DNA from: a virus
Virus record (IMG/VR): IMGVR_UViG_3300032893_000006
Span: 70,338-134,337 of that record
DNA length: 64,000 nucleotides
Strand: one strand, 5' to 3'
Part shown: positions 7,446 to 55,896 of the stretch, piece by piece
How the letters are laid out: each line of letters starts with the position of its first letter
Numbering within the stretch: position 1 is the first letter of the stretch
The notes under the pieces: model-generated
Databases searched by the model: none
Seen by the model: only the letters and a program-made list of their open reading frames with translations
What the model was told of the DNA's origin: nothing
Position numbers and translations under genes: made by a program

Positions 7446-7930
7446 TGCTGACCTCCGGATGCAGGAGCCAAGTCTCTCCAGCGCCACAACCATCGAATAC
7501 AGTGACGATTGCTCCTGCCTCGTGCCCATCTGGGCAAACGTGCAGCTATTCGTATTTAGTGAGTCGTGCGATCTGTAGCTCGGCGACAAGCTGCCCGACA
7601 CCTGCGACTGGAGTCTACACACCGCTGAATGCAACTGCGCTGGCAACCTCGACCTATACTGACACGACGCCTCCATCAGGACAATATGTTGCATATGTAA
7701 CTCAGGCGACGCTTGATGGAACTCATTTTGGAAATCCCTCTCCCGCCTCAGCGGCTATTCTCACAGCGCTTTATCCGGGGACCCCCGGCACGCCGACTGT
7801 GACGGCTTTAGCGGCCTTAGCGCCTCCAGTAAAAATAGGTGTGCCAGTGCAATTGACTACTCTTGTTCCTGTTCCAGATCGCCCTATGGCTAAGTCGATG
7901 GTCCTAGCTTTGAGGGTAGAAAGTAAGTGA
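7400..7930 (+). CDS. Lipoprotein, FN3/Ig-like
   Basis: AGGAG RBS; MRRVSIPLLVFLLSMMLTSG|C lipobox. Confidence 0.65.
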   Translation: MRRVSIPLLVFLLSMMLTSGCRSQVSPAPQPSNTVTIAPASCPSGQTCSYSYLVSRAICSSATSCPTPATGVYTPLNATALATSTYTDTTPPSGQYVAYVTQATLDGTHFGNPSPASAAILTALYPGTPGTPTVTALAALAPPVKIGVPVQLTTLVPVPDRPMAKSMVLALRVESK

Positions 7931-37240: not shown

Positions 37241-38037
37241 GGTTCGGTCTCCTTGTTTAGTTCGGTTTGTGGGAATTCGCGGATAAGGAGATGGGCAGGG
37301 ATAAGCTTCGCCCCTTCCTCCGGAGTTCTCGCACTCAACTGTTTCATGAAAAACTTTACACCAGCGTGGGTGGCTTCTTCATGAAGTTTTTCGGCCCACG
37401 TCTGCTCCATAAGCCTCCGTCCATTGCCGCTTTCGCCGCCACAGATGAGCCAGTCCGGAAAATCAGCCGCGTCATCATTGGGAGCATTCTCGGCCCACTT
37501 ATCCATGGATAAGGGACCGAGCGCTGGTTCGTAACTGACAAAGCTGACGAGTTCGTAATCGAGCGCCACGAGTCGCAGAGCAGGCCAGCGAACGTCGTAA
37601 AATTCCTGATTTTCCGCCGACATTCCAAGCCATACATTGTTGTGGGCGAAAGATTGTGGCAAGTATCTGTTGTAGCGCTGAGGGCGTTTTGTCAGTAACT
37701 GCCAGATGAGATACGGGGTTCGGTCGATCAACTCCCATAGCCGCTCACGCTGACCTTCCGGAGCTTCGTCATCCATCACGTCAGCCATCGATGCACAGAA
37801 TACCTTTCGCTGCACTCCGGCAGCTTGTGCGTCGCGGTTCCACTTGAAAGGCTCGTTCCAGTGCTTATCCCCAAAGACGCGGCGCGGAACTTTCTTCCCC
37901 CAGTGAGGTTCACCCCATCGCGCATCGAGAGCCTCGGCGTAACAGTTGTCGCAGCCGGGAGATACTTTTGTGCAACCCCACCACGGATTAAACGTGCTGT
38001 CGGTCCACGCAATTTTGGTTGTATCTCCCATCACCAT
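37237..38037 (-). CDS. Gp37Gp68 / DUF5131 family protein
   Basis: IAWTDSTFNPWWGCTKVSPGCDNCYA...QLLTKRP...GGESG...FFMKQ. Confidence 0.93.
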   Translation of the reverse strand: MVMGDTTKIAWTDSTFNPWWGCTKVSPGCDNCYAEALDARWGEPHWGKKVPRRVFGDKHWNEPFKWNRDAQAAGVQRKVFCASMADVMDDEAPEGQRERLWELIDRTPYLIWQLLTKRPQRYNRYLPQSFAHNNVWLGMSAENQEFYDVRWPALRLVALDYELVSFVSYEPALGPLSMDKWAENAPNDDAADFPDWLICGGESGNGRRLMEQTWAEKLHEEATHAGVKFFMKQLSARTPEEGAKLIPAHLLIREFPQTELNKETEP

Positions 38038-40550: not shown

Positions 40551-40790
40551 ATGATCGAGATGATGAAGGACGACTTTATTGCGCCGGAGCACATTGCTCG
40601 CGTGAAAAAGATCGACGACGACACCTGCAACGTGTGGCTTGTCGGTCAGAGCGCTCTTGAACCGCACGTCGTGAACTGCAGCGCCAGAGATTTCGCCAAT
40701 GCAGTAAATGACGAGCTTAAATTGCCCCGGTGCGAAGAAGGGGATCAATCGGTCTCCGGCGACGAAAACTCAGATGAAGAAAGTTCTTGA
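40551..40790 (+). CDS. Small acidic hypothetical protein
   Basis: 79-aa ORF; its stop codon overlaps the -35 of the tRNA cluster 1 promoter. Confidence 0.45.
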   Translation: MIEMMKDDFIAPEHIARVKKIDDDTCNVWLVGQSALEPHVVNCSARDFANAVNDELKLPRCEEGDQSVSGDENSDEESS

Positions 40791-40815
40791 CAGGTATTTG
40801 CGACCGTGAGAGCAT
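40787..40815 (+). promoter_or_regulatory. Sigma70-type promoter of tRNA cluster 1
   Basis: TTGACA-N17-GAGCAT (weak -10). Confidence 0.55.
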
Positions 40816-40825
40816 GAAAAACGTT

Positions 40826-40906
40826 ATGAAGCTTTGCTTGTCCAGTTCGCGACTCTATTCCTCATTACTGAGGATGGGCTCGCCTTTTCTGGATCGCGGG
40901 ATATAA
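40826..40906 (+). CDS. Attenuator leader peptide 1 (MKLCLSSSRLYSSLLRMGSPFLDRGI; alternative start 40814)
   Basis: Codons CTT TGC TTG TCC AGT TCG CGA CTC TAT TCC TCA TTA CTG match the downstream Leu/Cys/Ser/Tyr tRNAs. Confidence 0.85.
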   Translation: MKLCLSSSRLYSSLLRMGSPFLDRGI

Positions 40907-40929
40907 GCTTCAGCGAATTTCAGAAAGAT

Positions 40930-40967
40930 GAGCCCTCAGACGCCAAGCGACTGGGGGCTTTTAGTTT
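40930..40967 (+). terminator. Attenuator terminator 1
   Basis: AGCCCTCAG/CTGGGGGCT stem plus T-rich tail; 5' arm also complementary to CTGAG-gat-GGGCTC at 40868..40881. Confidence 0.8.
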
Positions 40968-41050
40968 GCGGGATTGGCGGAATTGGAAGACGCAGTGGAC
41001 TTAAAATCCATCGGGCAACCGTAGGGGTTCAAGTCCCCTATCCCGCACCA
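40968..41050 (+). tRNA. trnL: tRNA-Leu(TAA)
   Basis: Cloverleaf; loop CTTAAAA; variable arm; encoded CCA. Confidence 0.95.
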
Positions 41051-41226: not shown

Positions 41227-41326
41227 GTACGGAAGTGGCGAAACTGGCAGACGCGCACGCGTGTGCTCTGCGGTGTGCTAGGCACACTTAAAGAGCGTGA
41301 AGGTTCGAGTCCTTCCTTCTGTACAG
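41227..41326 (+). ncRNA. Leu-type tRNA-like RNA with aberrant anticodon region
   Basis: Acceptor ACGGAAG/CTTCTGT, Leu-like D arm, intact T arm; no 7-nt anticodon loop; no CCA. Confidence 0.7.
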
Positions 41327-44697: not shown

Positions 44698-44919
44698 ATG
44701 AAAATGAGCCTAAAGGTCACGATTCCAGACGATCTCGCCAAAGAGTTTTTACAGATGATTCGCGACTTCGATACCAAGCACGATCCGAATCATGAGGACA
44801 AGGTCACCTTGCAGGTGTTTGCTGAAGGTGGCCTGACGGTCGAGGAGATGAGCGAGATTCTGGACTCCATGACGCCCAAGATGGAACACAAGTGTGTTGT
44901 AAGAGCGGACGCCGAATAA
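44698..44919 (+). CDS. Small hypothetical protein
   Basis: 73-aa ORF. Confidence 0.5.
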   Translation: MKMSLKVTIPDDLAKEFLQMIRDFDTKHDPNHEDKVTLQVFAEGGLTVEEMSEILDSMTPKMEHKCVVRADAE

Positions 44920-45381: not shown

Positions 45382-45579
45382 GTGAGAATCTTCATGGGTA
45401 ACGCTCATGCGTGGCGGCACCGGAGCGGACGTGGTAATCCTTGTCCGACCGGATGTCTCTATTGCAAGATGCGCCCTAAGAGTGGCGAGCCGGGGTCTCG
45501 GCAGAAGCACTACAGCAACAAGACCAGCCGTGGCCGTCATTGTCCGAGGGGCAGGAACGCAAACAAGAAAAAGAAGTGA
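45382..45579 (+). CDS. Small Arg/Lys-rich protein
   Basis: GAGGTG RBS; CPTGCLYC. Confidence 0.4.
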   Translation: MRIFMGNAHAWRHRSGRGNPCPTGCLYCKMRPKSGEPGSRQKHYSNKTSRGRHCPRGRNANKKKK

Positions 45580-45945
45580 TTGAGTTACGCACGTCAACAC
45601 TGAGGTGAAGGGATTTCGGACGCGGGTTCGAATCCCGCCGAGTCCACCAAGAAGCACACAAGAGGTACGGAGCCAGATACTCTAAAGCCCGTGGGCAATG
45701 TCCTAACCGGACCGGAGTCGCAACGCTGGCCGAGGAGTGCTACCGTGTGTGTTTCTTTGTGGGCTCGTCAAGGTTTCGACGGGATCAATGATCCTCAGCT
45801 TCGTGCCGGAGTAGTATGCCCACCGTAACGGGAATGCAACCAATAAGTGCTGAGGACAATGCACTGCCGATGGCTGCTTAATCACCAGCTATCCAAGGTT
45901 TGGCCACGTTCCTTGTTAAGCAATACGTGGCGATTGATCCGGGGG
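45580..45945 (+). ncRNA. ssrA: Circularly permuted (two-piece) tmRNA; tag AEDNALPMAA; outer ends approximate
   Basis: T arm plus CGAGTCC-A-CCA (ends 45649) precedes the 5' strand GGGCTCG (45761) with G3:U70; tag ORF 45849..45881 after AATAAGT. Confidence 0.92.
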
Positions 45946-45946
45946 A

Positions 45947-46315
45947 ATGATGCCACTACGTTCAAACGATCTCATCAAGGCGTTCACTGAGAACGACAAG
46001 TTTGTCGTCGACTCGAACGGCGTGAAGTCCCTTGAGCTTGACGGCAAGAAGTATCCCTGCACCGGCTACATCGGTCAGGTGAAGTCAGGCTACATGTGTC
46101 AGAATGACTTTCAGCACGAGGTCGGCGATGCTCCAGCGACCGGCCCGGTCTGCGACTCTGTTGAGAGCTTGGTTGCAAGCCATCCATGTGTGAAAGAATG
46201 TGGGTGGGTTCGAGTCTTGCTGATTGCAGTGGAGCATGGCGATGCCAGAGAATCGGAAGAGGAAACAAAACAAGAAGAAAATCAAACGTCGGCGGGAAAT
46301 TCAATCACAAGTTGA
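45947..46315 (+). CDS. Hypothetical protein
   Basis: 122-aa ORF with GGGGG RBS. Confidence 0.5.
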   Translation: MMPLRSNDLIKAFTENDKFVVDSNGVKSLELDGKKYPCTGYIGQVKSGYMCQNDFQHEVGDAPATGPVCDSVESLVASHPCVKECGWVRVLLIAVEHGDARESEEETKQEENQTSAGNSITS

Positions 46316-46487
46316 TCGCTGCCGCAAAATTTTGTTGGAATCTGCGTTTCCGCGTCGCACGGTCCAGAAGACATGGGTTCCGACGACACCTCCTGCTTGG
46401 GCTACGGTTGATCCCCTTACTGGCAAGGTGATCTCCCTATCGACCTTTAATGCAGGTTCTGGGTATACTAATAAAGCTGGATTCGTG

Positions 46488-46562
46488 GCGTCGCCGTCTA
46501 GTGGTATGGACCCCTGATTCTCAATCAGGTGACCGTGGGTTCGATCCCCACCGGGAGTACCA
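46488..46562 (+). pseudogene. tRNA-Glu(CTC) with unpaired acceptor stem
   Basis: D, anticodon (TTCTCAA) and T arms and CCA intact; 5' strand does not pair with CGGGAGT. Confidence 0.7.
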
Positions 46563-46568
46563 GAATTT

Positions 46569-46835
46569 ATGAAACTCGAATTCATTCCGTGGTCAGAAAA
46601 CGTCGAAATTCAACTGTGCGATGACGACGGTTCCGTCATCGACAAGTTGTATACAGCGAATACAGAGATCGTTGTATCCAATCCCGGAGCAGATGCGGAG
46701 CACCTTTTTCATTACATGGATTGTGTACTTACGAAGCCAAGGATTGGTGGTGCTTTTGCCGATTATCACCCCTACTGGAAAGAACGCGAGGGAAAGCGAG
46801 CGGCCAGAGCGGCGAAGCTCGGACTGACGCAATAA
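46569..46835 (+). CDS. Hypothetical protein
   Basis: 88-aa ORF followed by a terminator. Confidence 0.55.
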   Translation: MKLEFIPWSENVEIQLCDDDGSVIDKLYTANTEIVVSNPGADAEHLFHYMDCVLTKPRIGGAFADYHPYWKEREGKRAARAAKLGLTQ

Positions 46836-46897: not shown

Positions 46898-48121
46898 TTA
46901 CGCTGCGCGCTTCAGCAGTGACAAGTGGATGAGTTTGCCGCCCAGTTCCACCGCTTCGCCGATGTGGCTGGCGCTGGTGAGGCCGGTGATGACCACCCGG
47001 TCGTTGCCATCTGCCTTGTGCTCGAAGATCACGTTCGCATCGAAGCTCTGAGCCAAGACCCGTGTGACCTGTTCGATGGCCTTCTCGGGCTTGTACTCGA
47101 ACACATCTTCCTGCTCTTCCTTGATGAGTTCGGTGCCCATGCGCTTCACGCTGTCCTTGTGGAGCGCTGCCCATGACTGATGAACTTCGAACAGTTCGAT
47201 GGTCTCGACGCCGCGATCCGTGATGAGCGAGATTCCCACCTGATCGTCATGAAGCTTGACCTTGCTGAGAATGTCATCGAGGTTCGCGGTGAAGATCGTG
47301 TCGTTGGCGACATAGCTGTCACGCGGCGGAGCAGCAGTGGCGGTGCGAATTAGTGGCGGAGCGAAAGGCGGCGATCCAGCAGATGCTCTCGCACTGCCAC
47401 GAATACCACCGGCACGCATCGGCCCGGAAGAACTGGTAGTGAAGCGCGGACGTGGTTGAGCGGATTCGAGCCGTGCTCTCAAGCTATCGAGGCCACCACC
47501 GCGAATCGGCTCGGCGGGTTCGAGACCTGCTTTTTCCATAGTAAAAGCGCCCAAGCCAGCGTCGGCGACGAAGCAGGTTGACTTCATCATATTGCTTGTG
47601 CTGACCATGTTCCAGTACGTGGTCTGGTCGAGCGGTGTATATCCAGCACCATACACGCCACGCTCGACATCGAGAGAGATCGTGCCGTGATAGCCGAAGT
47701 TGGCACCGCCACGAATTCCGTGCGAGGCGTGAACGCAGCGCGCATCGAGAGCAACTTCCTTGCCGGGGAACAGGATCGCGCTGCGCGTAATCGTGCGGCT
47801 CTGCGTTCCCTTTCCGGCGAACACAGTGCCGGAGCGAACGAAGACTTTTTGGTCGGTGTTGTTTTTGAGATTGACCTTGTTGATCATTCCCGAGTCAATT
47901 GCGGTGACTCCATCGGTCTCGGGATAGGTCAGGTAGTCGCGGCCAATTTCGCCATCGCGCAGGATCGGAAGAATCACAGCGAGCGCCTTGTCTTCCACGC
48001 GCTTGGGCTTGCCGAAGTGAAATCCCATGGCCTGCCCGATGAGGGTATCCATGATGTTGTCGAGGTTGACGGCTTGGTACTTGGTGAGGGCGGACGTAGA
48101 GGTACGGCGGATTGGTGCCAT
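46898..48121 (-). CDS. ARPP-1 / DUF6569-like protein
   Basis: VNLKNNTDQKVFVRSGTVFAGKGTQSR...ARCVHA pattern recognised from memory. Confidence 0.6.
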   Translation of the reverse strand: MAPIRRTSTSALTKYQAVNLDNIMDTLIGQAMGFHFGKPKRVEDKALAVILPILRDGEIGRDYLTYPETDGVTAIDSGMINKVNLKNNTDQKVFVRSGTVFAGKGTQSRTITRSAILFPGKEVALDARCVHASHGIRGGANFGYHGTISLDVERGVYGAGYTPLDQTTYWNMVSTSNMMKSTCFVADAGLGAFTMEKAGLEPAEPIRGGGLDSLRARLESAQPRPRFTTSSSGPMRAGGIRGSARASAGSPPFAPPLIRTATAAPPRDSYVANDTIFTANLDDILSKVKLHDDQVGISLITDRGVETIELFEVHQSWAALHKDSVKRMGTELIKEEQEDVFEYKPEKAIEQVTRVLAQSFDANVIFEHKADGNDRVVITGLTSASHIGEAVELGGKLIHLSLLKRAA

Positions 48122-48179: not shown

Positions 48180-48249
48180 ATAGTAGGCTAAATCTTGGAT
48201 TTGTCAAGAAAAATAGCCATTGACAAACTGCGGCCATCCGGGGTACTGT
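48180..48249. promoter_or_regulatory. Back-to-back divergent sigma70-type promoters
   Basis: Minus: TTGACA(48207)-N16-TACTAT; plus: TTGACA(48220)-N18-TACTGT. Confidence 0.7.
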
Positions 48250-48258
48250 GGAAAAGTC

Positions 48259-48333
48259 ATGAGATTGAACCGAGCCAATTCGAATCATCCAGCGCAAACG
48301 GTGGCAACACCGTTTCAGGGTGGTCGTATGTAG
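48259..48333 (+). CDS. Attenuator leader peptide 2 (MRLNRANSNHPAQTVATPFQGGRM)
   Basis: Codons AAC AAT CAT CCA GCG CAA ACG GCA ACA CCG TTT CAG GGT CGT match cluster 2 anticodons. Confidence 0.88.
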   Translation: MRLNRANSNHPAQTVATPFQGGRM

Positions 48334-48376
48334 GCTCGGCCTATTCATCGCAGCTTCGAGAAGCACGATGGGGAAG

Positions 48377-48411
48377 AAGGTCCGAGCCGAATGGTTCGGA
48401 CCTTTTGTTTT
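48377..48411 (+). terminator. Attenuator terminator 2
   Basis: AAGGTCCGAGCC/GGTTCGGACCTT plus TTGTTTT; 5' arm complementary to GGCTCGGCCT at 48333..48342. Confidence 0.85.
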
Positions 48412-48421
48412 GCGAGTTTAT

Positions 48422-48496
48422 TCCGGGGTAGCTCAAAGGCAGAGCGTCTGGCTGTTAACCAGATCGTTGGGGGTTCGAGTCCCTCCTCCGGAGCCA
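48422..48496 (+). tRNA. trnN: tRNA-Asn(GTT)
   Basis: Loop CTGTTAA; CCA. Confidence 0.96.
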
Positions 48497-48501
48497 GTTT
48501 A

Positions 48502-48620
48502 GATGTGTGACGTGCGGGGCCGCTTGTGTTAGTCCCCGTTTGATGGGCAGTGACGGCGACAAGAGCTTCGGGCCGTCTGAGTAAGTCCTTGATATGGAGA
48601 AGCGCTCCAGCGTCAGCATC
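48502..48620 (+). ncRNA. Unassigned structured RNA
   Basis: Closing stem plus three hairpins; possible loop-loop pairing CTTGT/ACAAG. Confidence 0.45.
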
Positions 48621-48634
48621 GCTGTTTGAGTAGT

Positions 48635-48708
48635 TGGCTCGTCGTTCAATGGCAGGACAGCGGTCTCTGGAACCGCATATCGGGGTTCAAGTCCCTGCGA
48701 GCCAGCCA
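48635..48708 (+). tRNA. trnQ: tRNA-Gln(CTG)
   Basis: Loop CTCTGGA; CCA. Confidence 0.95.
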
Positions 48709-48779
48709 AGATTTATGTGAGGATCGTTACAGCCGATTCGAAGAGTGTGTAACTCACAGCCTTCACATAGAAAGTTTGT

Positions 48780-48857
48780 TGGGGGATGGCAGAGCGGTCA
48801 ATTGCACTCGCCTTTGGAGCGAGAAGGCCGTGGGTTCGAATCCCACTCCCCCTGCCA
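48780..48857 (+). tRNA. trnQ: tRNA-Gln(TTG), U1:U72 mismatch
   Basis: Loop CTTTGGA; CCA. Confidence 0.9.
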
Positions 48858-49024
48858 AGTTTGGAGATGTTATGGAACAGGATGCCAAAGACGATCCATG
48901 GGAAACGCGTTGCTACATGGGGGGTGGTAGTGTTGGTGATGAATGTGAGGATCAACCTGAACCAACGCCACCAAAGACCTATCAGGAATATCTGAATTAT
49001 TTCGAAGTTGTGATTGAAATTTAA

Positions 49025-49100
49025 GCGGGTGTAATTCAGCGGCTAGAATGTCGCGTTGCCAACGCGAATATCGTGGGTTCGAGTCCCATCACCCGCTCCA
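49025..49100 (+). tRNA. trnG: tRNA-Gly(GCC)
   Basis: Loop TTGCCAA; U73; CCA. Confidence 0.96.
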
Positions 49101-49119
49101 AGTTTTTGAGGGTTGCGTC

Positions 49120-49314
49120 ATGATTTTGCAGCAAGTTGAACTCGCCAGCGGCAACGAAAGGATGGTGTGCTGGCTCGCTCGTGATCCACGAGTTAGAGTC
49201 GGCACCGTGATTTCGCTCGCAAAGAGCGACAAGCGTTGGCGAGTTCAACAGCAGTACGGAGTGATCGACCACGAGGGAATCAAGCGGAAGTGGCCGGTCG
49301 GAGGAATGAGTTAG
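49120..49314 (+). CDS. Small hypothetical protein
   Basis: GAGGG RBS; 64-aa ORF between tRNAs. Confidence 0.5.
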   Translation: MILQQVELASGNERMVCWLARDPRVRVGTVISLAKSDKRWRVQQQYGVIDHEGIKRKWPVGGMS

Positions 49315-49315
49315 T

Positions 49316-49391
49316 GCTGGTGTAGCTCAAGTGGTAGAGCACTCGCCTCGTAAGCGAGAGGTTGGGTCTTCGAGTGACCTCACCAGCCCCA
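49316..49391 (+). tRNA. trnT: tRNA-Thr(CGT)
   Basis: Loop CTCGTAA; CCA. Confidence 0.93.
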
Positions 49392-49403
49392 GTTTGGAGG
49401 TGA

Positions 49404-49952
49404 ATGATGGCGTTACCGAAAAGAGGTGTCTTGTTGCTGACCAACTGCAACGAGCCCATCAGCATCATCACCGGACGTCGCGCCCTAACGATGGTAACTA
49501 AGGGCGTCTGCACAGTCGTAGTGCCAACCAGCATTCGGGTGTGCCCCGGGGTGTACCTGCCGTCCGTAATTCGGTTGATGGAATACAAAAGGATTCCGTA
49601 CCGGACGCAGCAGGTGACTCGGAAGAACATTTTGGTTCGAGACGGGTACCGCTGTATGTACTGCGGCACGAGGAAGGATGGCTCTGAGCTTGAGTTAGAG
49701 CACGTCATTCCGAAGAGCAGAGGCGGAAAGAATACGTGGGAGAACTTAGTTGCAGCATGTGCACCATGTAACCGGCGCAAGAACGACAGGACGCCGGAGG
49801 AAGCGGGAATGAAGTTGATTCACAAGCCGCTACCTGTGACGGTTCACACGGCGAAGCTTTTGCTGAGACAGATCGGTTCCGAAGTGAACGAGTGGAAGCC
49901 ATTCTTGTGGAACGACAGTCAGGGTGACACAAGATTCCAGTTCGTGCACTAG
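49404..49952 (+). CDS. HNH endonuclease (HNH_5/McrA-like)
   Basis: RDGYRCMYCG...LEHVIPKSRGGKNTWENLVAACAPCNRRK. Confidence 0.92.
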   Translation: MMALPKRGVLLLTNCNEPISIITGRRALTMVTKGVCTVVVPTSIRVCPGVYLPSVIRLMEYKRIPYRTQQVTRKNILVRDGYRCMYCGTRKDGSELELEHVIPKSRGGKNTWENLVAACAPCNRRKNDRTPEEAGMKLIHKPLPVTVHTAKLLLRQIGSEVNEWKPFLWNDSQGDTRFQFVH

Positions 49953-49973
49953 GAAGGCGATCCAATATTTTGA

Positions 49974-50050
49974 GCCGGGTTAGCTCATCGTGGCAGAGCG
50001 GCGGTTTTGTAAACCGCAGGCGAACAGTTCAAGCCTGTTACCCGGCCCCA
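49974..50050 (+). tRNA. trnT: tRNA-Thr(TGT)
   Basis: Loop TTTGTAA; CCA. Confidence 0.92.
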
Positions 50051-50056
50051 TTTTGT

Positions 50057-50131
50057 GGGGACTATCGTTCAGTGGTAGGACGCGTGATTGTGGCTCACGA
50101 CACCGGAGTTCAATTCTCCGTAGTCCCCCCA
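50057..50131 (+). tRNA. trnH: tRNA-His(GTG) with encoded G-1
   Basis: Loop TTGTGGC; G-1:C73; CCA. Confidence 0.95.
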
Positions 50132-50140
50132 ATAAGTTTC

Positions 50141-50216
50141 GGGGCAGTAGCTCAGATGGGAGAGCGCGCGCATCGCAAGCGCGAGGCCGAGAGTTCGATT
50201 CTCTCCTGCTCCACCA
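50141..50216 (+). tRNA. trnA: tRNA-Ala(CGC)
   Basis: G3:U70; loop ATCGCAA; CCA. Confidence 0.95.
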
Positions 50217-50218
50217 AG

Positions 50219-50302
50219 TTTCCGGTCGTTTTATTGTGGCAAGACGCCGTCCTTTTCGCGAAGGATGGAGATTGAGGGATGGCCCACCTCACCGGAAAGC
50301 CA
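50219..50302 (+). ncRNA. Non-canonical tRNA-like RNA (8-bp acceptor, 4-bp T-like stem, GCCA end)
   Basis: TTTCCGGT/ACCGGAAA-G-CCA; 8-bp anticodon-position stem with 6-nt loop; no TTC T loop. Confidence 0.6.
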
Positions 50303-50313
50303 ATTGAAGTTTT

Positions 50314-50391
50314 GGGCCTCTAGCTCATCTTTGGGAGAGCACTCGCCTTGCAAGCGAGAGGTGATCGGTTCGAGACCGATGAGGTCCACCA
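50314..50391 (+). tRNA. trnA: tRNA-Ala(TGC)
   Basis: G3:U70; loop CTTGCAA; CCA. Confidence 0.95.
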
Positions 50392-50466
50392 AGTTTGTGA
50401 CGGCCCTGTGGTAGCAGGGTGCCTACCAGCCGACCAGAGAACTCTCAGGATAGCGTCACAGTTTTT

Positions 50467-50541
50467 GGACTCGTAGCTCCAAGGTAGAGCGGGACCCTGA
50501 AGAGGTTCGCGTTGCTGGTTCAAGTCCAGTCGAGTCCACCA
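50467..50541 (+). tRNA. trnF: tRNA-Phe(GAA)
   Basis: Loop CTGAAGA; CCA. Confidence 0.93.
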
Positions 50542-50542
50542 T

Positions 50543-50618
50543 CGGGAAGTGGCCAAGCGGTAAGGCTCACGTCTGGGGGGCGTGTAATGCGTGAGTTCGA
50601 ATCTCACCTTCCCGACCA
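50543..50618 (+). tRNA. trnP: tRNA-Pro(GGG)
   Basis: C1:G72, A73; CT followed by G-run loop; CCA. Confidence 0.92.
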
Positions 50619-50631
50619 AGTTTGTAAGTAT

Positions 50632-50709
50632 CAGGGTATAGCTCAGTTTGCGTAGAGCGCGCGGTTCGGGTCCGCGAGGCCGGGGGTTCAAATCCCTCTA
50701 CCCTGACCA
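50632..50709 (+). tRNA. trnP: tRNA-Pro(CGG)
   Basis: Loop TTCGGGT; CCA. Confidence 0.94.
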
Positions 50710-50721
50710 GTTTTTAAGTTT

Positions 50722-50798
50722 CGGGACTGGGCGCGGCTTGGTAGCGCTCCTGTTTTGGGAACAGGCGGTCGTGGGTTCGAATCCCACAGTCCCGACCA
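50722..50798 (+). tRNA. trnP: tRNA-Pro(TGG)
   Basis: Loop TTTGGGA; CCA. Confidence 0.94.
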
Positions 50799-50820
50799 GT
50801 TTTTATAGCCTAGACATGGT

Positions 50821-51411
50821 ATGATTTTACTATTGGCTAGGCTATGTAGAAAATGTGAAGCGATTATCCCTCTTTGGGTAAACATAGGCGGGAGACTCAG
50901 GAATCTGCAGCGACGCAAATTTTGTCTTAAATGTTCAGAATTTGGGGCTCATAATACATCTTCACAATTGGGTGTTGAAGTTAAGAAGAAACGCCCACCA
51001 AAATGTGCTTGCGGAGAAGCCGACCCAAAGAAGTTTTACGGTAGAAAAGCGACGGTCTGTGGGCGATGTCATAATCGATACACGACGCGAAGAGGATCGC
51101 TAGTAAAGCGCAAGGCGCGAGAACATCTCGGTGGCAAGTGTAAGTATTGTGGCTATTCGCAGTTTGATGTATCGCTTGATATACATCACACCGACCCATC
51201 AAAAAAAGACCCGGCCTTTCAAAGTATGAGGGGGTGGTCTTGGAAGCGCATTGTAAAGGAACTTGAATTGTGTGAATTGGTTTGTAAGAACTGTCACACC
51301 GCATTGCATTGTGGTTTGATAAGCCGGGGTTGTAGCTCAGTTGGATTCAGAGCGGCGGTCTACGAAACCGCAGGTCACAGGTTCGAGTCCTGTCAGCCCC
51401 ACCATTTGTAA
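50821..51411 (+). CDS. Zn-finger HNH endonuclease reading through tRNA-Arg(ACG)
   Basis: CKYCGY...LDIHHTDP...CELVCKNCHTALH; first in-frame stop lies after the tRNA. Confidence 0.8.
   Translation: MILLLARLCRKCEAIIPLWVNIGGRLRNLQRRKFCLKCSEFGAHNTSSQLGVEVKKKRPPKCACGEADPKKFYGRKATVCGRCHNRYTTRRGSLVKRKAREHLGGKCKYCGYSQFDVSLDIHHTDPSKKDPAFQSMRGWSWKRIVKELELCELVCKNCHTALHCGLISRGCSSVGFRAAVYETAGHRFESCQPHHL
51326..51404 (+). tRNA. trnR: tRNA-Arg(ACG)
   Basis: Loop CTACGAA; CCA. Confidence 0.94.
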
Positions 51412-51796: not shown

Positions 51797-51902
51797 CCGC
51801 TGACAGTGTTGCTTACATGGGTGGGTAACCACCATTTCACTGCTAATGAAAATCCGGCGCGAGCCGGGTGTACCCGAAAGGGTTGCAGCGCGACTACAGC
51901 GG
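51797..51902 (+). ncRNA. Y-RNA-like element 1
   Basis: CCGCTG/CAGCGG ends; TGAC..TACATG and CGACTACA motifs; arm TTTCA-CTGCTAA-TGAAA. Confidence 0.75.
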
Positions 51903-51917
51903 AGAGATTTTGAGTAT

Positions 51918-51992
51918 GGCTTGACTGTTTCGCATACATGTTGCTCTTGACAAGCGAACACGCCGAAAGGCAATGCGGAACGACTACAAGCC
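51918..51992 (+). ncRNA. Y-RNA-like element 2
   Basis: GGCTTG/CAAGCC ends; shared motifs; arm TTGCT-CTTGACA-AGCGA. Confidence 0.75.
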
Positions 51993-52001
51993 AGTAAGTT
52001 T

Positions 52002-52136
52002 GGGCTGACTGAGTTGCTTACATGTCCTTTGGAGACCGAGGTCGGAGGTTCGAATCCTTCATCGTCCACCAACAATGAGTAGACGGGCGATTAGCTCAGC
52101 GGTAGAGCGCGTAAACAAGCAGATCGACTACAGCCC
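52002..52136 (+). ncRNA. YrlA-type Y RNA (element 3; permuted tRNA domain)
   Basis: GGGCTG/CAGCCC ends; T arm precedes D arm; acceptor ATCGTCC/GGGCGAT closed by a linker. Confidence 0.85.
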
Positions 52137-52150
52137 AAAGATTTTGAGTT

Positions 52151-52270
<120 letters not shown>

Positions 52271-52277
52271 ATAAGAT

Positions 52278-52410
52278 GGGCCGGGTTCGTCTAAAAGCGA
52301 AACTTCCAGATTCGACTACAGCAGCAATGCTGACTGAAATTGGATACATGGATAAGACAATAGTTCTCGGAACTATGTTTGGAGGTTCGAATCCTTCACC
52401 CGGCTCCTAC
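52278..52410 (+). ncRNA. Y-RNA-like element 5, circularly permuted relative to the others
   Basis: GGGCCGGGT/ACCCGGCTC ends; CGACTACAGCA-gcaa-TGCTGAC internal hairpin; T arm. Confidence 0.78.
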
Positions 52411-52416
52411 AAGTTT

Positions 52417-52547
52417 GGATTGACTGCACGAGGATACATGATCTTGTTCCGGGGAAACCCGGCCCCCTCCACCACCATACCGGCTTCATTTACCAATGGG
52501 GGGCGCGCCGCAAGGCTGCAAATCTAAACCGCGAGCGACTACAATCC
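52417..52547 (+). ncRNA. Y-RNA-like element 6
   Basis: GGATTG/CAATCC ends; shared motifs; T and D positions carry GAAA/GCAA hairpins; acceptor-like stem with CCA. Confidence 0.75.
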
Positions 52548-52569
52548 AAAAGTTTTGTCCGGGGGAAAC

Positions 52570-53121
52570 ATGGCAAGTGGCGACAGGTTTTATCAGCTAC
52601 AGTTGCGCCATCGCGACGCTCTAGTCGGCGACATTGGCTCAATCCTCAAAATTGAAGGAATCGTGATCGGCGGCGAAGGCGCACGTGGAACGCTTATGCT
52701 TCCAGATGCGCCACACGACGTTTTCACGCGTGATTCGCTGTGGCTAACTATCGAAGAGTGGTCAGACTGGCTCCAGAGATCGGACAATCCCGACATACTC
52801 GTGCAGGGATCACTGGAGAAGGTCTTCCACCGTAAGCTCAGGTACGACATCTCCGGCGCAGTCCAGCAGAAGGTGTGGGTTGCTGACGGATGCAAGTGTA
52901 TGTACTGCTTCCGTCCGATGGGGGAAGTGCAGCTTACAATCGATCACTTCGTTCCGCTTGAAAGTGGTGGCAAGAACGATCAATCGAATTACCTGTCGGC
53001 GTGCCGAAAGTGCAACAAGGACAAGGGCGGCATGAGTCCGCGGCAATGGTGTGGTCTGGACAAAGTCAAATGGGATTACGATTCTTACGTCCAGTATCTG
53101 ATCGAACGCAAACTTCCATAA
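52570..53121 (+). CDS. HNH endonuclease with uncharacterised N-terminal domain
   Basis: CKCMYC...LTIDHFVPLESGGKNDQSNYLSACRKCNKDK. Confidence 0.88.
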   Translation: MASGDRFYQLQLRHRDALVGDIGSILKIEGIVIGGEGARGTLMLPDAPHDVFTRDSLWLTIEEWSDWLQRSDNPDILVQGSLEKVFHRKLRYDISGAVQQKVWVADGCKCMYCFRPMGEVQLTIDHFVPLESGGKNDQSNYLSACRKCNKDKGGMSPRQWCGLDKVKWDYDSYVQYLIERKLP

Positions 53122-53146
53122 CTACCCACTAAAGGAGGGTGACTAT

Positions 53147-54652
53147 ATGGGTGAGCAGGGAATCACGAAGCAGCGTATCTTCGCGGAGCTTTCAAAGTCT
53201 TCGCATGGCAAGCTCTCTGAGTATGTTGAGATCGCCAAGCAGGCCATCGCAACTGAGGGCGACTTCTTTCAGCACTTGATCGCGTGGAATCACATTCACG
53301 GACAGGTTCGTGACAGCAAGGTTGCGTTGCCGGTGCTCGGTCTGGCTTTCGAGAGCAATCTCGATCTGCTCGATAACAGCGTCGCGCATCTTGCCAAGCT
53401 CGGTCCTCGTGAGTTGAAGAGGGCTTTCGAGTTCGTTCGCGAGATTCGTCCGCAGGGCAAGATGTCGCGGATGGATCGCGTGATCTGCGCATACCTCCGT
53501 CAGAAGGAGGAGTCGCGCAACTGGGATCACATCGCGATCCAGCACCGTGCCGTACTAAAGGCGCTCTACGCGCTCTCTCGTACCGGCCCGGGCAACCGTC
53601 GTGTAGCTGCCGTGATCTCCGGCCAGTGGAAGGAGAAGATCGGTGACACGGTGGTCGTGACCAAGCTTGCTCTTCCGAAGGGCTCTGTGTTCGAGGCTGT
53701 AGCTAAGCTCAAGGACATGGCTCCTGTTGAGGCTGCTGGCACGATCATGCGCTACAAGATTCCGTTCCTGATCGCCATGGGTGCCCTTGGCTTCAAGGTG
53801 AAGGAGACCGATCTTGTGATGGCGCTGATCGAGCAGATGTCGCCGACTGAGCTTGTGACCAACACGAAGATGCTGGAGAAGCTCGGCATGAAGACCAACC
53901 CGGTGCTCCGTGCTGCATTTGAGAAGGGCATGGAGAAGGCTGCAACGTCCAAGCAGAACACGCTGAAGACGACGGCGGCTGTCGAGGCCGTAGAGGACGA
54001 GGGGCTGAAGGATAAGCTACGCGGCCTGCAGAAGAAGCAGATCGCGGCGGCTGGTGGTCCCGATGGCAACTGGCTTGTGCTGGCCGACAAGAGCGGCAGC
54101 ATGGCGGCGGCAATCGAGATCGCAAGGCACGTGTCCGCGTCTCTGGCTCAGTTCGTCAAGGGCAAGGTGTATCTCGTGTTCTTCGACACCTCGCCGATGA
54201 CGGTCGATGTAACTGGCTTATCGCTCGATCAGATTAAGATGGCGACGCGCCACATCACAGCAGGCGGCGGCACTTCAATCGGCGTGGGCCTGAGCAGGAT
54301 GTTGAAGGAGAAGGTGGAGATCGACGGTATCGCAATCGTCTCTGACGGCGGCGAGAACACCGCACCGCTCTTTGCTGATGTCTACAAGAAGTATTCGGCA
54401 TTCGCAGGCAAGGATGTGCCGGTCTACTTCTATGACACCTACGGCGACACCCACCTCACCCAGTCATTGAATGCGGCTGGCATTGAGATGCAGAAGTTCG
54501 ACGTTCGCAGCGGCAAGGTCGACTACTACAGCATTCCGAACCTCGTGCAGACGATGCGCTCGAACCCCTATAGCCTCGTCGACGAGATCATGGCTACCCC
54601 GCTCGTATCACTGAGCGAGGTGTTGAAGGATGCAGAACTGGTAGGTGCCTGA
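53147..54652 (+). CDS. rsr: Ro60/Rsr-like TROVE plus vWA protein (divergent)
   Basis: Helical N-terminal region with MSPTELVTNTKMLEKLG (TROVE-like); vWA MIDAS DKSGS, GGTSIG, VSDGGEN; adjacent Y-RNA-like array. Confidence 0.75.
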   Translation: MGEQGITKQRIFAELSKSSHGKLSEYVEIAKQAIATEGDFFQHLIAWNHIHGQVRDSKVALPVLGLAFESNLDLLDNSVAHLAKLGPRELKRAFEFVREIRPQGKMSRMDRVICAYLRQKEESRNWDHIAIQHRAVLKALYALSRTGPGNRRVAAVISGQWKEKIGDTVVVTKLALPKGSVFEAVAKLKDMAPVEAAGTIMRYKIPFLIAMGALGFKVKETDLVMALIEQMSPTELVTNTKMLEKLGMKTNPVLRAAFEKGMEKAATSKQNTLKTTAAVEAVEDEGLKDKLRGLQKKQIAAAGGPDGNWLVLADKSGSMAAAIEIARHVSASLAQFVKGKVYLVFFDTSPMTVDVTGLSLDQIKMATRHITAGGGTSIGVGLSRMLKEKVEIDGIAIVSDGGENTAPLFADVYKKYSAFAGKDVPVYFYDTYGDTHLTQSLNAAGIEMQKFDVRSGKVDYYSIPNLVQTMRSNPYSLVDEIMATPLVSLSEVLKDAELVGA

Positions 54653-55638: not shown

Positions 55639-55667
55639 TTGCAAAGAGTCGGAAAGTGGTGTAACGT
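55639..55667 (+). promoter_or_regulatory. Sigma70-type promoter of tRNA cluster 3
   Basis: TTGCAA-N17-TAACGT. Confidence 0.7.
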
Positions 55668-55677
55668 GGTTCCTGTT

Positions 55678-55746
55678 ATGACGCAGACCTTCAAACACGG
55701 GATAACCAGAATGACCAAGCGGGTCATTTGGGGAATCGTGTGCTAG
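55678..55746 (+). CDS. Attenuator leader peptide 3 (MTQTFKHGITRMTKRVIWGIVC)
   Basis: Codons ACC AAA GGG ATA AGA ATG AAG CGG ATT TGG GGA ATC GTG match cluster 3 anticodons. Confidence 0.88.
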   Translation: MTQTFKHGITRMTKRVIWGIVC

Positions 55747-55777
55747 GGGTCTGAAAGTCCATTTTCTGGATTTCCAT

Positions 55778-55806
55778 GACCCCGGCTCAGGCCGGGGTTT
55801 TCATTT
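55778..55806 (+). terminator. Attenuator terminator 3
   Basis: GACCCCGGC/GCCGGGGTT plus TTCATTT; GACCCC also complementary to GGGGTC at 55746..55751. Confidence 0.82.
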
Positions 55807-55820
55807 GCTGTTTGACATAC

Positions 55821-55896
55821 AGGGGCGTAAGCTCAGCGGCTAAACTGTCGGTCTCCAAAACCGAACTCGTCGGTTCGAATCCGACCGCCCCTGCCA
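55821..55896 (+). tRNA. trnW: tRNA-Trp(CCA)
   Basis: Loop CTCCAAA; CCA. Confidence 0.96.

Follow-up and report, generated by a model that had tools for sequence, protein, structure and literature searches.

Here we present a computational analysis of a putative transcription attenuator at positions 48220–48411 of a 64,000-nucleotide (nt) stretch of DNA from a soil phage (hereafter the window), the final 64 kb of the 134-kb uncultured virus record IMGVR_UViG_3300032893_000006 (rated complete). All results for this element, leader unit 2, and for its relatives are computational. The virion genes lie in the first 30 kb of the window, whereas the segment from 41 to 59 kb carries 39 transfer RNA (tRNA) genes and a permuted transfer-messenger RNA (tmRNA), every one on the plus strand and grouped in blocks. 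One of these blocks, cluster 2, runs from tRNA-Asn (48422) to tRNA-Arg (51326), with a Y-RNA-like array coming next, and its tRNA genes are interspersed with an HNH endonuclease open reading frame (ORF; 49404–49952, assigned by Pfam) and one other ORF. Leader unit 2 sits between tRNA-Asn and a divergent ARPP-1-domain gene that starts at 48121 on the minus strand.

A preliminary description, drawn from the letters of the DNA, had read this interval as an attenuator that senses the tRNAs of cluster 2, and direct reading of the sequence found all of the features it had listed (Table 1). The unit opens with two promoter-type hexamers; the pattern TTGACA-N17/18-TAnnnT has a single match in the window, at 48220. 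Since the start codon lies 6–10 nt past the −10 hexamer in all homologues with a conserved promoter, the leader-2 mRNA is probably leaderless or nearly so. The ORF contains the 7-mer CCGAGCC near its beginning (from 48270), a second copy lies in the 5′ arm of the terminator (48382–48388), and the complement of both, GGCTCGG (48333–48339), shares its first G with the stop codon. This arrangement, as given in the preliminary description, was confirmed. The 7-mer occurs 13 times in the 64 kb, counting both strands, and the placement of three copies within 119 nt in plus–minus–plus order is far from chance. The terminator comprises a 5′ arm (48376–48388, region 3), a loop (48389–48392) and a 3′ arm (48393–48405, region 4). 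A further hairpin inside the ORF may act as a pause hairpin, and the leader-2 region as a whole folds far better than shuffled sequences (z −5.7). As only 10 nt separate the U tract from tRNA-Asn, there is no space for a promoter of its own, and tRNA-Asn would be made only by read-through.

Table 1. Coordinates of leader unit 2, its presumed target genes and the two sister units in the window.
Feature	Position	Strand	Details
−35 hexamer, TTGACA	48220–48225	+	Read directly; conserved in relatives
−10 hexamer, TACTGT	48244–48249	+	18-nt spacer from −35; start codon 9 nt downstream
Leader ORF (putative sensor)	48259–48333	+	ATG at 48259, 24 sense codons, TAG at 48331–48333
Region 1, CCGAGCC (codons 4–6), anti-antiterminator strand	48270–48276	+	Pairs with 48333–48339 in full-leader and nascent minimum-free-energy folds
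8-bp hairpin in ORF (codons 13–19)	48296–48315	+	Present in every predicted fold
Region 2, switch strand	48333–48342	+	Begins at last base of stop codon; pairs with region 1 or terminator 5′ arm
Spacer hairpin, between regions 2 and 3	48344–48372	+	Predicted in both states
Intrinsic terminator hairpin	48376–48405	+	13 bp, −22.1 kcal/mol; inner part also called by terminator scan
Terminator U tract	48403–48411	+	Ends 10 nt short of tRNA-Asn (48422)
Cluster 2, presumed regulated genes	48422–51404	+	ARAGORN, Rfam; 14 tRNA genes: Asn, Gln (two), Gly, Thr (two), His, Ala (two), Phe, Pro (three), Arg
Sister unit 1	40787–40960	+	TTGACA; ORF 40826–40906, rich in Leu/Ser/Cys/Tyr codons; terminator 40930–40960
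Sister unit 3	55639–55799	+	TTGCAA/TAACGT; ORF 55678–55746; terminator 55778–55799; then tRNA-Trp at 55821

The codons of leader 2 match the tRNA genes behind it. Under strict wobble rules, 17 of the 23 codons that follow the start are cognate to tRNAs of cluster 2, which reproduces the count first given, and 13 of the 14 distinct anticodons are covered, Pro-ggg being the sole miss. Both Gln, both Thr and both Ala isoacceptors, and two of the three for Pro, have codons of their own, as the preliminary description had it. The anticodons covered lie in all three sub-blocks of the cluster, out to Arg-acg at 51326. Random draws from the codon usage of this phage reach 17 hits with P = 6.5 × 10−4 and 13 anticodons with P = 2 × 10−3; among 64,997 open 23-codon windows in the six frames, 37 attain the coverage of leader 2, and four of these 37 are the leader itself.

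The same design stands before two other blocks of the window. The terminator of sister unit 1 is followed by a Leu/Cys/Ser/Tyr tRNA cluster that begins at 40968, and sister unit 3 precedes a cluster that runs from Trp to Gly. Cognate codons for the leader's own cluster number 14 of 25, 17 of 23 and 14 of 21 in leaders 1, 2 and 3, respectively, against one to five for the other clusters, and own-cluster anticodon coverage is 11/12, 13/14 and 10/10. For cluster 3, full coverage is reached only at the leader-3 site (68,605 open windows, six frames). In a blind scan of 121 short ORFs located up to 900 nt upstream of tRNAs, the three leader loci rank top.

Three minor observations concern these neighbouring blocks. 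The one cluster-1 anticodon that leader 1 leaves uncovered belongs to a 96-nt 'tRNA-Ala tgc' that ARAGORN calls at 41229–41324, within the Leu/Ser/Tyr cluster, and that is absent from the Rfam list; because it is the only anticodon missed, ARAGORN may be in error here. Between the leader-3 terminator and tRNA-Trp there is a TTTGACA/TTTGAAA motif (55811–55817), kept in contigs L005, L016, L017, L021, L028, L031, L032 and L036, which is too near tRNA-Trp to act as its promoter. At 44698–44919, 37 nt upstream of tRNA-Met and tRNA-Asp, lies an ORF of 73 codons with a high content of Asp, Glu and Met and with TAAAAT 7 nt before its ATG. We considered it as a fourth leader, for the Met/Asp/tmRNA/Glu group, and rejected it for want of a terminator and of any conserved equivalent in relatives; it probably encodes a small acidic protein of an ordinary kind.

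Relatives of the locus were found with the downstream Ro60-like protein as anchor, which yielded four viral contigs and a further 37 from peat and soil metagenomes, many of them sharing the order of the tRNA blocks. Other routes returned little: a BLAST search of the leader-2 region against 50,697 phage records gave tRNA-gene matches only and no relative of the leader, viral-contig searches with the neighbouring ARPP-1 protein and AAA ATPase gave no match, and a DNA pattern of the conserved start of the leader matched only the L005/L007 phage. Homologues of leader 2 were identified in L007 (with identical copies in L005 and L038), L010, L024 (identical in L022), L028 and L036, which together with the window form a six-member metagenomic clade. 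The seventh member of the set comes from Tunturi_5, a cultured 308-kb phage of Tunturiibacter (phylum Acidobacteriota), the description of which lists 43 tRNA genes and is silent on their control (PMC11924767).

Each of these leaders is built from the amino acids of its own cluster, covering between 9 of 10 and 14 of 14 of its anticodons, and ranks first or third among the ORFs in a blind scan of its own locus; in related loci generally, leaders are the first- to third-ranked ORFs, and the own-cluster match is found in more than 14 leader-3 homologues as well. Frameshifts in homologous leaders had been named beforehand as one observation that would refute the reading, and the leader-2 frame is intact in all seven homologues. 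Over the three leader families and a unit from Ralstonia phage RsoM2USA (see below), the leader frame is open in all 28 instances, with the +1 frame open in 1 and the +2 frame in 12 of the 28. The seven leader-2 peptides, by contrast, are only 13–35% identical and share one invariant column. Frame and codon content have been kept while the peptide has diverged, which points to selection on the frame and codons rather than on the peptide, as expected of a sensor.

The flanking signals are conserved too. A cTTGACA hexamer, a 17–18-nt spacer and a TAnnGT-like or GAnnAT-like hexamer are kept in all six leader-2 units of the metagenomic clade, which were the leader-2 units covered by the promoter alignment, and in five of six leader-1 homologues; a Shine-Dalgarno-like sequence precedes the same start in Tunturi_5 and in some leader-3 lineages. 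Hairpin terminators follow the ORF in all leader-2 homologues and are canonical, with a U tract, in five of the seven and in nearly all leader-1 and leader-3 homologues.

Leader content also changes with cluster content. In Tunturi_5 the third cluster has gained tRNA-Asp, two tRNA-Glu, Arg-acg and Val-gac, and the third leader, annotated as gp308 (a hypothetical protein of 49 residues), covers all 15 of its 15 anticodons. Codons read only by the extra tRNAs make up 18 of the 48 in this leader, against 1–3 of about 22 in 13 of the 14 third leaders of the window clade and 6 of 27 in the remaining one (L017). In the closest relative of the window, L002, cluster 2 has been lost in its usual form and leader 2 has been lost with it. 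At the remodelled middle tRNA block of L002 (Thr-agt, Pro, Arg, Lys; 7513–7880), a TTGACA promoter is followed by an ORF that resembles, by eye, an archaeal-type peptidyl-tRNA hydrolase.

These comparisons bear on what the leader might be if not a sensor. One alternative is that the ORF encodes a small functional peptide, or that the terminated RNA of about 150 nt acts in trans as a small RNA, the codon match being a by-product and the tRNAs being made by constitutive read-through. There is precedent in Sinorhizobium, in which the attenuator-derived RNA rnTrpL and the leader peptide peTrpL have functions in trans (PMC6614838, PMC7298713), and the third leader of Tunturi_5 is annotated as a protein. 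We nevertheless regard this as very unlikely, since codon composition and not the peptide is conserved, the three unrelated peptides of the window each match their own cluster only, and leader content shifts with that of the cluster; moreover, a function in trans would supplement an attenuator rather than replace it. Less probable still is a protein-independent RNA switch that binds a tRNA or a metabolite, in the manner of a T-box or riboswitch, with the open frame incidental. The strong predicted structure of the leader would suit such a switch, but frame, start position and codon content are conserved, whereas the RNA outside the promoter and start is not (52% mean column identity). Nor did the leader match any Rfam family at E values up to 1: the permissive search gave no hit to the T-box covariance model and, over window positions 38000–64000, none to the leader families for Leu, Trp, His, Thr and Phe.

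Outside the clade, the Ralstonia phage RsoM2USA (MG752970.1; L052, 2839–3020) carries an unannotated 37-codon ORF in which 30 of 36 codons are cognate to the tRNA block that follows (P = 1 × 10−5). A 19-bp hairpin spans its last four codons and stop, and the 3′ strand of this hairpin is the 5′ arm of a canonical terminator, after which come tRNA-Met and the rest of the block (Met/Ile/Asn/Gln/Lys/Arg/Phe/Ala/Val). The leader has no relative in the phage collection. By its sequence this unit, from a betaproteobacterial jumbo phage, is a strong candidate for an independent example of the same design, unrelated to the window clade. Of four unrelated tRNA-rich phages put through the same blind scan, three, namely Rhodobacter phage RcXuper, Gordonia phage WilliamBoone and Pseudomonas phage ITTPL, showed no leader, and Aeromonas phage 65.2 had a single short ORF of low score (P = 6 × 10−4, three of five anticodons) that we do not count as a leader; the available stretch of Agrobacterium phage Atu_ph07 has too few tRNAs for such a scan. 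The design is therefore not universal among tRNA-rich phages. The feature is real and recurs in phages, and its reading as an attenuator is supported.

We then examined whether the RNA could switch. When the full RNA was folded at equilibrium with the ribosome footprint masked, the terminator always formed, and this approach is unable to test a switch; for this reason, nascent RNA was folded as far as the loop of the terminator while a 28-nt mask for the ribosome was moved stepwise through the ORF. In the minimum-free-energy fold of the full leader, region 1 is paired to region 2 and the terminator is formed. In all six clade members, by contrast, the nascent RNA folds with its stop-codon strand paired to the 5′ arm of the terminator, in the window as a 10-bp helix with 48378–48388. 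This 2:3 helix persists with the modelled ribosome at any position as far as about five codons short of the stop; once the A site is at the stop codon, it is lost in five of the six clade members. A ribosome stalled on one of the final three or four codons would hide region 2, and these codons therefore probably do not sense.

Both alternative pairings exceed chance expectation. The 2:3 duplex of the window has an energy of −20.4 kcal/mol against a null mean of −8.5 kcal/mol (P = 0.001). Compared with random windows of the same locus, complementarity between the stop-proximal strand and the terminator arm gives P values of 0.001–0.13 in the six clade members and 0.72 in Tunturi_5, with a Fisher combined P of 5 × 10−6 over the seven homologues. 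In nascent RNA ending 13 nt past the stop, the stop-proximal strand folds back onto the first 12 codons in six of the seven homologues, through paired sequences that differ among them (Fisher P = 1.5 × 10−3). In these predictions every element of a trp-type attenuator is present, and it is the architecture and not the sequence that is conserved across homologues; the trp-type interpretation of the preliminary description is thereby supported.

We consider it very probable that 48220–48411 is a ribosome-mediated transcription attenuator that gates the phage tRNA operon. In this model, transcription would begin only a few bases upstream of the ATG (48259), with immediate loading of a ribosome. 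Were all 24 codons decoded fast, the ribosome would reach the TAG while the polymerase was making the terminator, and its footprint would cover 48333–48342; with region 2 covered, the terminator would form and transcription would stop 10 nt before tRNA-Asn. Were any of the roughly 13 tRNA species of the cluster scarce in its charged form, the ribosome would stall within the ORF, blocking the pairing of region 1 and leaving region 2 free to pair with the emerging terminator 5′ arm, and the polymerase would read through into the 14 tRNA genes. With no ribosome on the leader, region 1 would pair with region 2 first and the terminator would form. The leader would be an OR gate whose inputs are the isoacceptors of its own cluster, and such a gate would give a demand-driven negative feedback on tRNA supply. 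Signals of this kind could include depletion of host tRNAs, cleavage by a defence nuclease or phage codon demand outrunning supply.

Several observations weigh against this mechanism. On its own, leader 2 has a binomial P of 4 × 10−4 among the 121 ORFs tested, which is borderline after correction; the strength of the case rests on position and replication, and the homologues that provide the replication are not independent samples. A generic promoter scan does not call a promoter at 48220, where the −10 hexamer matches the consensus at only three of six positions, and the case for this promoter rests on its conservation in relatives. The L007 leader has no His codon while its cluster has a tRNA-His. 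A poor U tract follows the hairpin in L024 and L028. As to the switch, in L024 the arm of the terminator stays paired even when a ribosome is modelled at the stop, and in Tunturi_5 the antiterminator strand lies 6–10 codons before the stop, outside the cover of a terminating ribosome. Energetically, the complete RNA is always about 10 kcal/mol more stable with the terminator (−68.7 kcal/mol) than with an enforced antiterminator (−58.6 kcal/mol), whereas RNA truncated before region 4 favours the antiterminator even without a ribosome.

The two outcomes that the preliminary description had assigned to termination stand in part. That a ribosome at the stop codon leads to termination agrees with the modelled masking of the 2:3 strand in five of six clade members but not with the models of L024 and Tunturi_5. 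That the lack of translation does so is in line with the 1:2 helix in the nascent minimum-free-energy folds (six of seven) but depends on the order of folding, because the truncated RNA prefers the 2:3 pairing, which makes the no-translation state uncertain. Since the complete RNA always favours the terminator, the decision would have to be kinetic, and read-through would need a kinetic window.

Some of these points are what would be expected if the pattern were fortuitous, with an unremarkable promoter, a short ORF of random origin and a terminator all happening to precede a tRNA gene. The borderline statistic of leader 2 taken alone and the weak consensus of its promoter would fit, but the same match is seen in three units of the window, in seven leader-2 homologues and in more than 14 leader-3 homologues, leaders rank first to third in the blind scans of every related locus, and the four unrelated tRNA-rich phages show no such leader, the low score in 65.2 aside. 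The comparative data already disfavour chance, which we hold to be the least credible of the explanations considered.

More serious, although still unlikely, is the possibility that the translated leader and its hairpins regulate the tRNA operon without classical antitermination: through RNase processing or stability of the pre-tRNA transcript, through the access of Rho, or with the sign reversed, such that efficient translation would promote expression. The weak U tracts of L024 and L028, the L024 arm that stays paired with a ribosome at the stop and a switch direction that equilibrium folding does not settle all speak for it, as do the homing-endonuclease ORFs that split the leader from the first tRNA in several relatives and would give long read-through transcripts for Rho to act on. 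Against it stand the canonical hairpin and U tract of five of the seven leader-2 units and of nearly all leader-1 and leader-3 homologues, and the beyond-chance complement of the terminator arm at the stop codon, a geometry specific to antitermination relieved by a terminating ribosome.

Taken as a ribosome-mediated attenuator, leader 2 is closest to the multivalent leader-peptide attenuators of enterobacteria, thrL (Thr, Ile) and ilvL of ilvGMEDA (Leu, Val, Ile), within the group that includes trpL, hisL, leuL and pheL. With these it shares a promoter, a short ORF with regulatory codons and an intrinsic terminator close ahead of the first gene, together with predicted 1:2, 2:3 and 3:4 pairings that exclude one another, an antiterminator strand that would lie under a ribosome at the stop codon and, in the proposed model, a response to more than one amino acid. 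Members of this family control genes of biosynthesis or for aminoacyl-tRNA synthetases, whereas the genes behind leader 2 are 14 tRNA genes; it would work like the family and differ by its target. It differs in its sensor as well, which has about one codon per isoacceptor for 13–15 isoacceptors in leaders of this type (nine amino acids in leader 2) instead of a run for one to three amino acids, which would tell isoacceptors apart by synonymous codons, and which is apparently read from a leaderless mRNA. The proposed mechanism is classical attenuation; what is new is the tRNA-gene target and the many-isoacceptor sensor.

Other systems share parts of this logic. The pheST attenuator of Escherichia coli, with its pheM leader, is a case in which a leader peptide controls a component of the translation apparatus according to charged tRNA; it senses a single amino acid and controls an aminoacyl-tRNA synthetase, whereas leader 2 would control tRNA genes themselves, so that its output would feed straight back on the sensed quantity. 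T-box elements likewise report the state of a specific tRNA through a terminator/antiterminator switch and govern genes that serve the charging of tRNA and the supply of amino acids, but each binds one uncharged tRNA directly, without translation, whereas in leader 2 a ribosome would read many tRNAs in series. Stringent and growth-rate control by guanosine tetraphosphate (ppGpp) and DksA fits the output of bacterial tRNA and rRNA promoters to translational demand; it acts at initiation, globally and blind to tRNA species, whereas leader 2 would act after initiation and cluster by cluster.

We know of essentially no account of how phage tRNA genes are regulated, and the bacterial controls of tRNA genes known to us act globally, at the promoter. 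Full-text literature searches turned up no report of tRNA genes under attenuation. If the interpretation is correct, leader 2 would be the first known attenuator over tRNA genes, would be more multivalent than any leader yet described and would serve as a direct homeostat for the supply of tRNA. It would bear on the question of why the tRNA sets of large phages are near-complete, and on how phages might respond to host defences that target tRNA or to their own shut-off of the host, and the leader would constitute a compact natural sensor of the availability of single tRNAs, reusable as a reporter. With homologous units in the cultured pair Tunturi_5 and Tunturiibacter psychrotolerans and an analogue in RsoM2USA, the idea is directly testable.

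We also lean, with much less assurance, towards a wider proposal: codon-matched leader attenuators may well be a general and so far undescribed control of tRNA genes in large phages of unrelated lineages, those seen here being Acidobacteriota phages, including Tunturi_5, and the Ralstonia phage RsoM2USA. Each block would be preceded by a leaderless checklist ORF working as an OR gate for as many as 15 isoacceptors, with synonymous codons to tell them apart; it would detect the loss of any single host tRNA, including loss by anticodon-nuclease cleavage, and answer by transcribing the matching set.

The tRNA region shows further variation among relatives. In L002 (13491–13822), L010 (4840–5550) and L036 (1830–2335), HNH homing-endonuclease ORFs follow the leader terminator and precede the first tRNA; like the HNH ORF inside cluster 2 of the window, they would be expressed only on read-through. 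Suppressor-type tRNAs are found in some relatives, namely two with anticodon cta (amber) in L005/L007 (2861 and 14039 in L005) and one with tta (ochre) in L022/L024 (9100 in L022); one cta tRNA stands where the window has Arg-tct. TAG is the stop codon of all six leader-2 ORFs of the metagenomic clade.

The permuted, two-piece tmRNA lies within the tRNA region of the window (45557–45972), of L002 (6037–6449) and of L010 (3336), with the same tag peptide in the window and L002 and a different one in L010. The window lacks tRNA-Glu, two copies of which follow the tmRNA in relatives, and has a partial tRNA-like Rfam match (38 bits) at the corresponding position (window 46496–46551 and 45972–46600). 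Beyond cluster 2, the region 51797–54652 encodes a Ro60/Rsr-like protein with a vWA domain (53147–54652) and, upstream of it, has a weak Rfam match to YrlA (52036–52114); the 'tRNA-Thr tgt' called at 52168 is probably the tRNA-like module of a Y-like RNA and not a second Thr tRNA.

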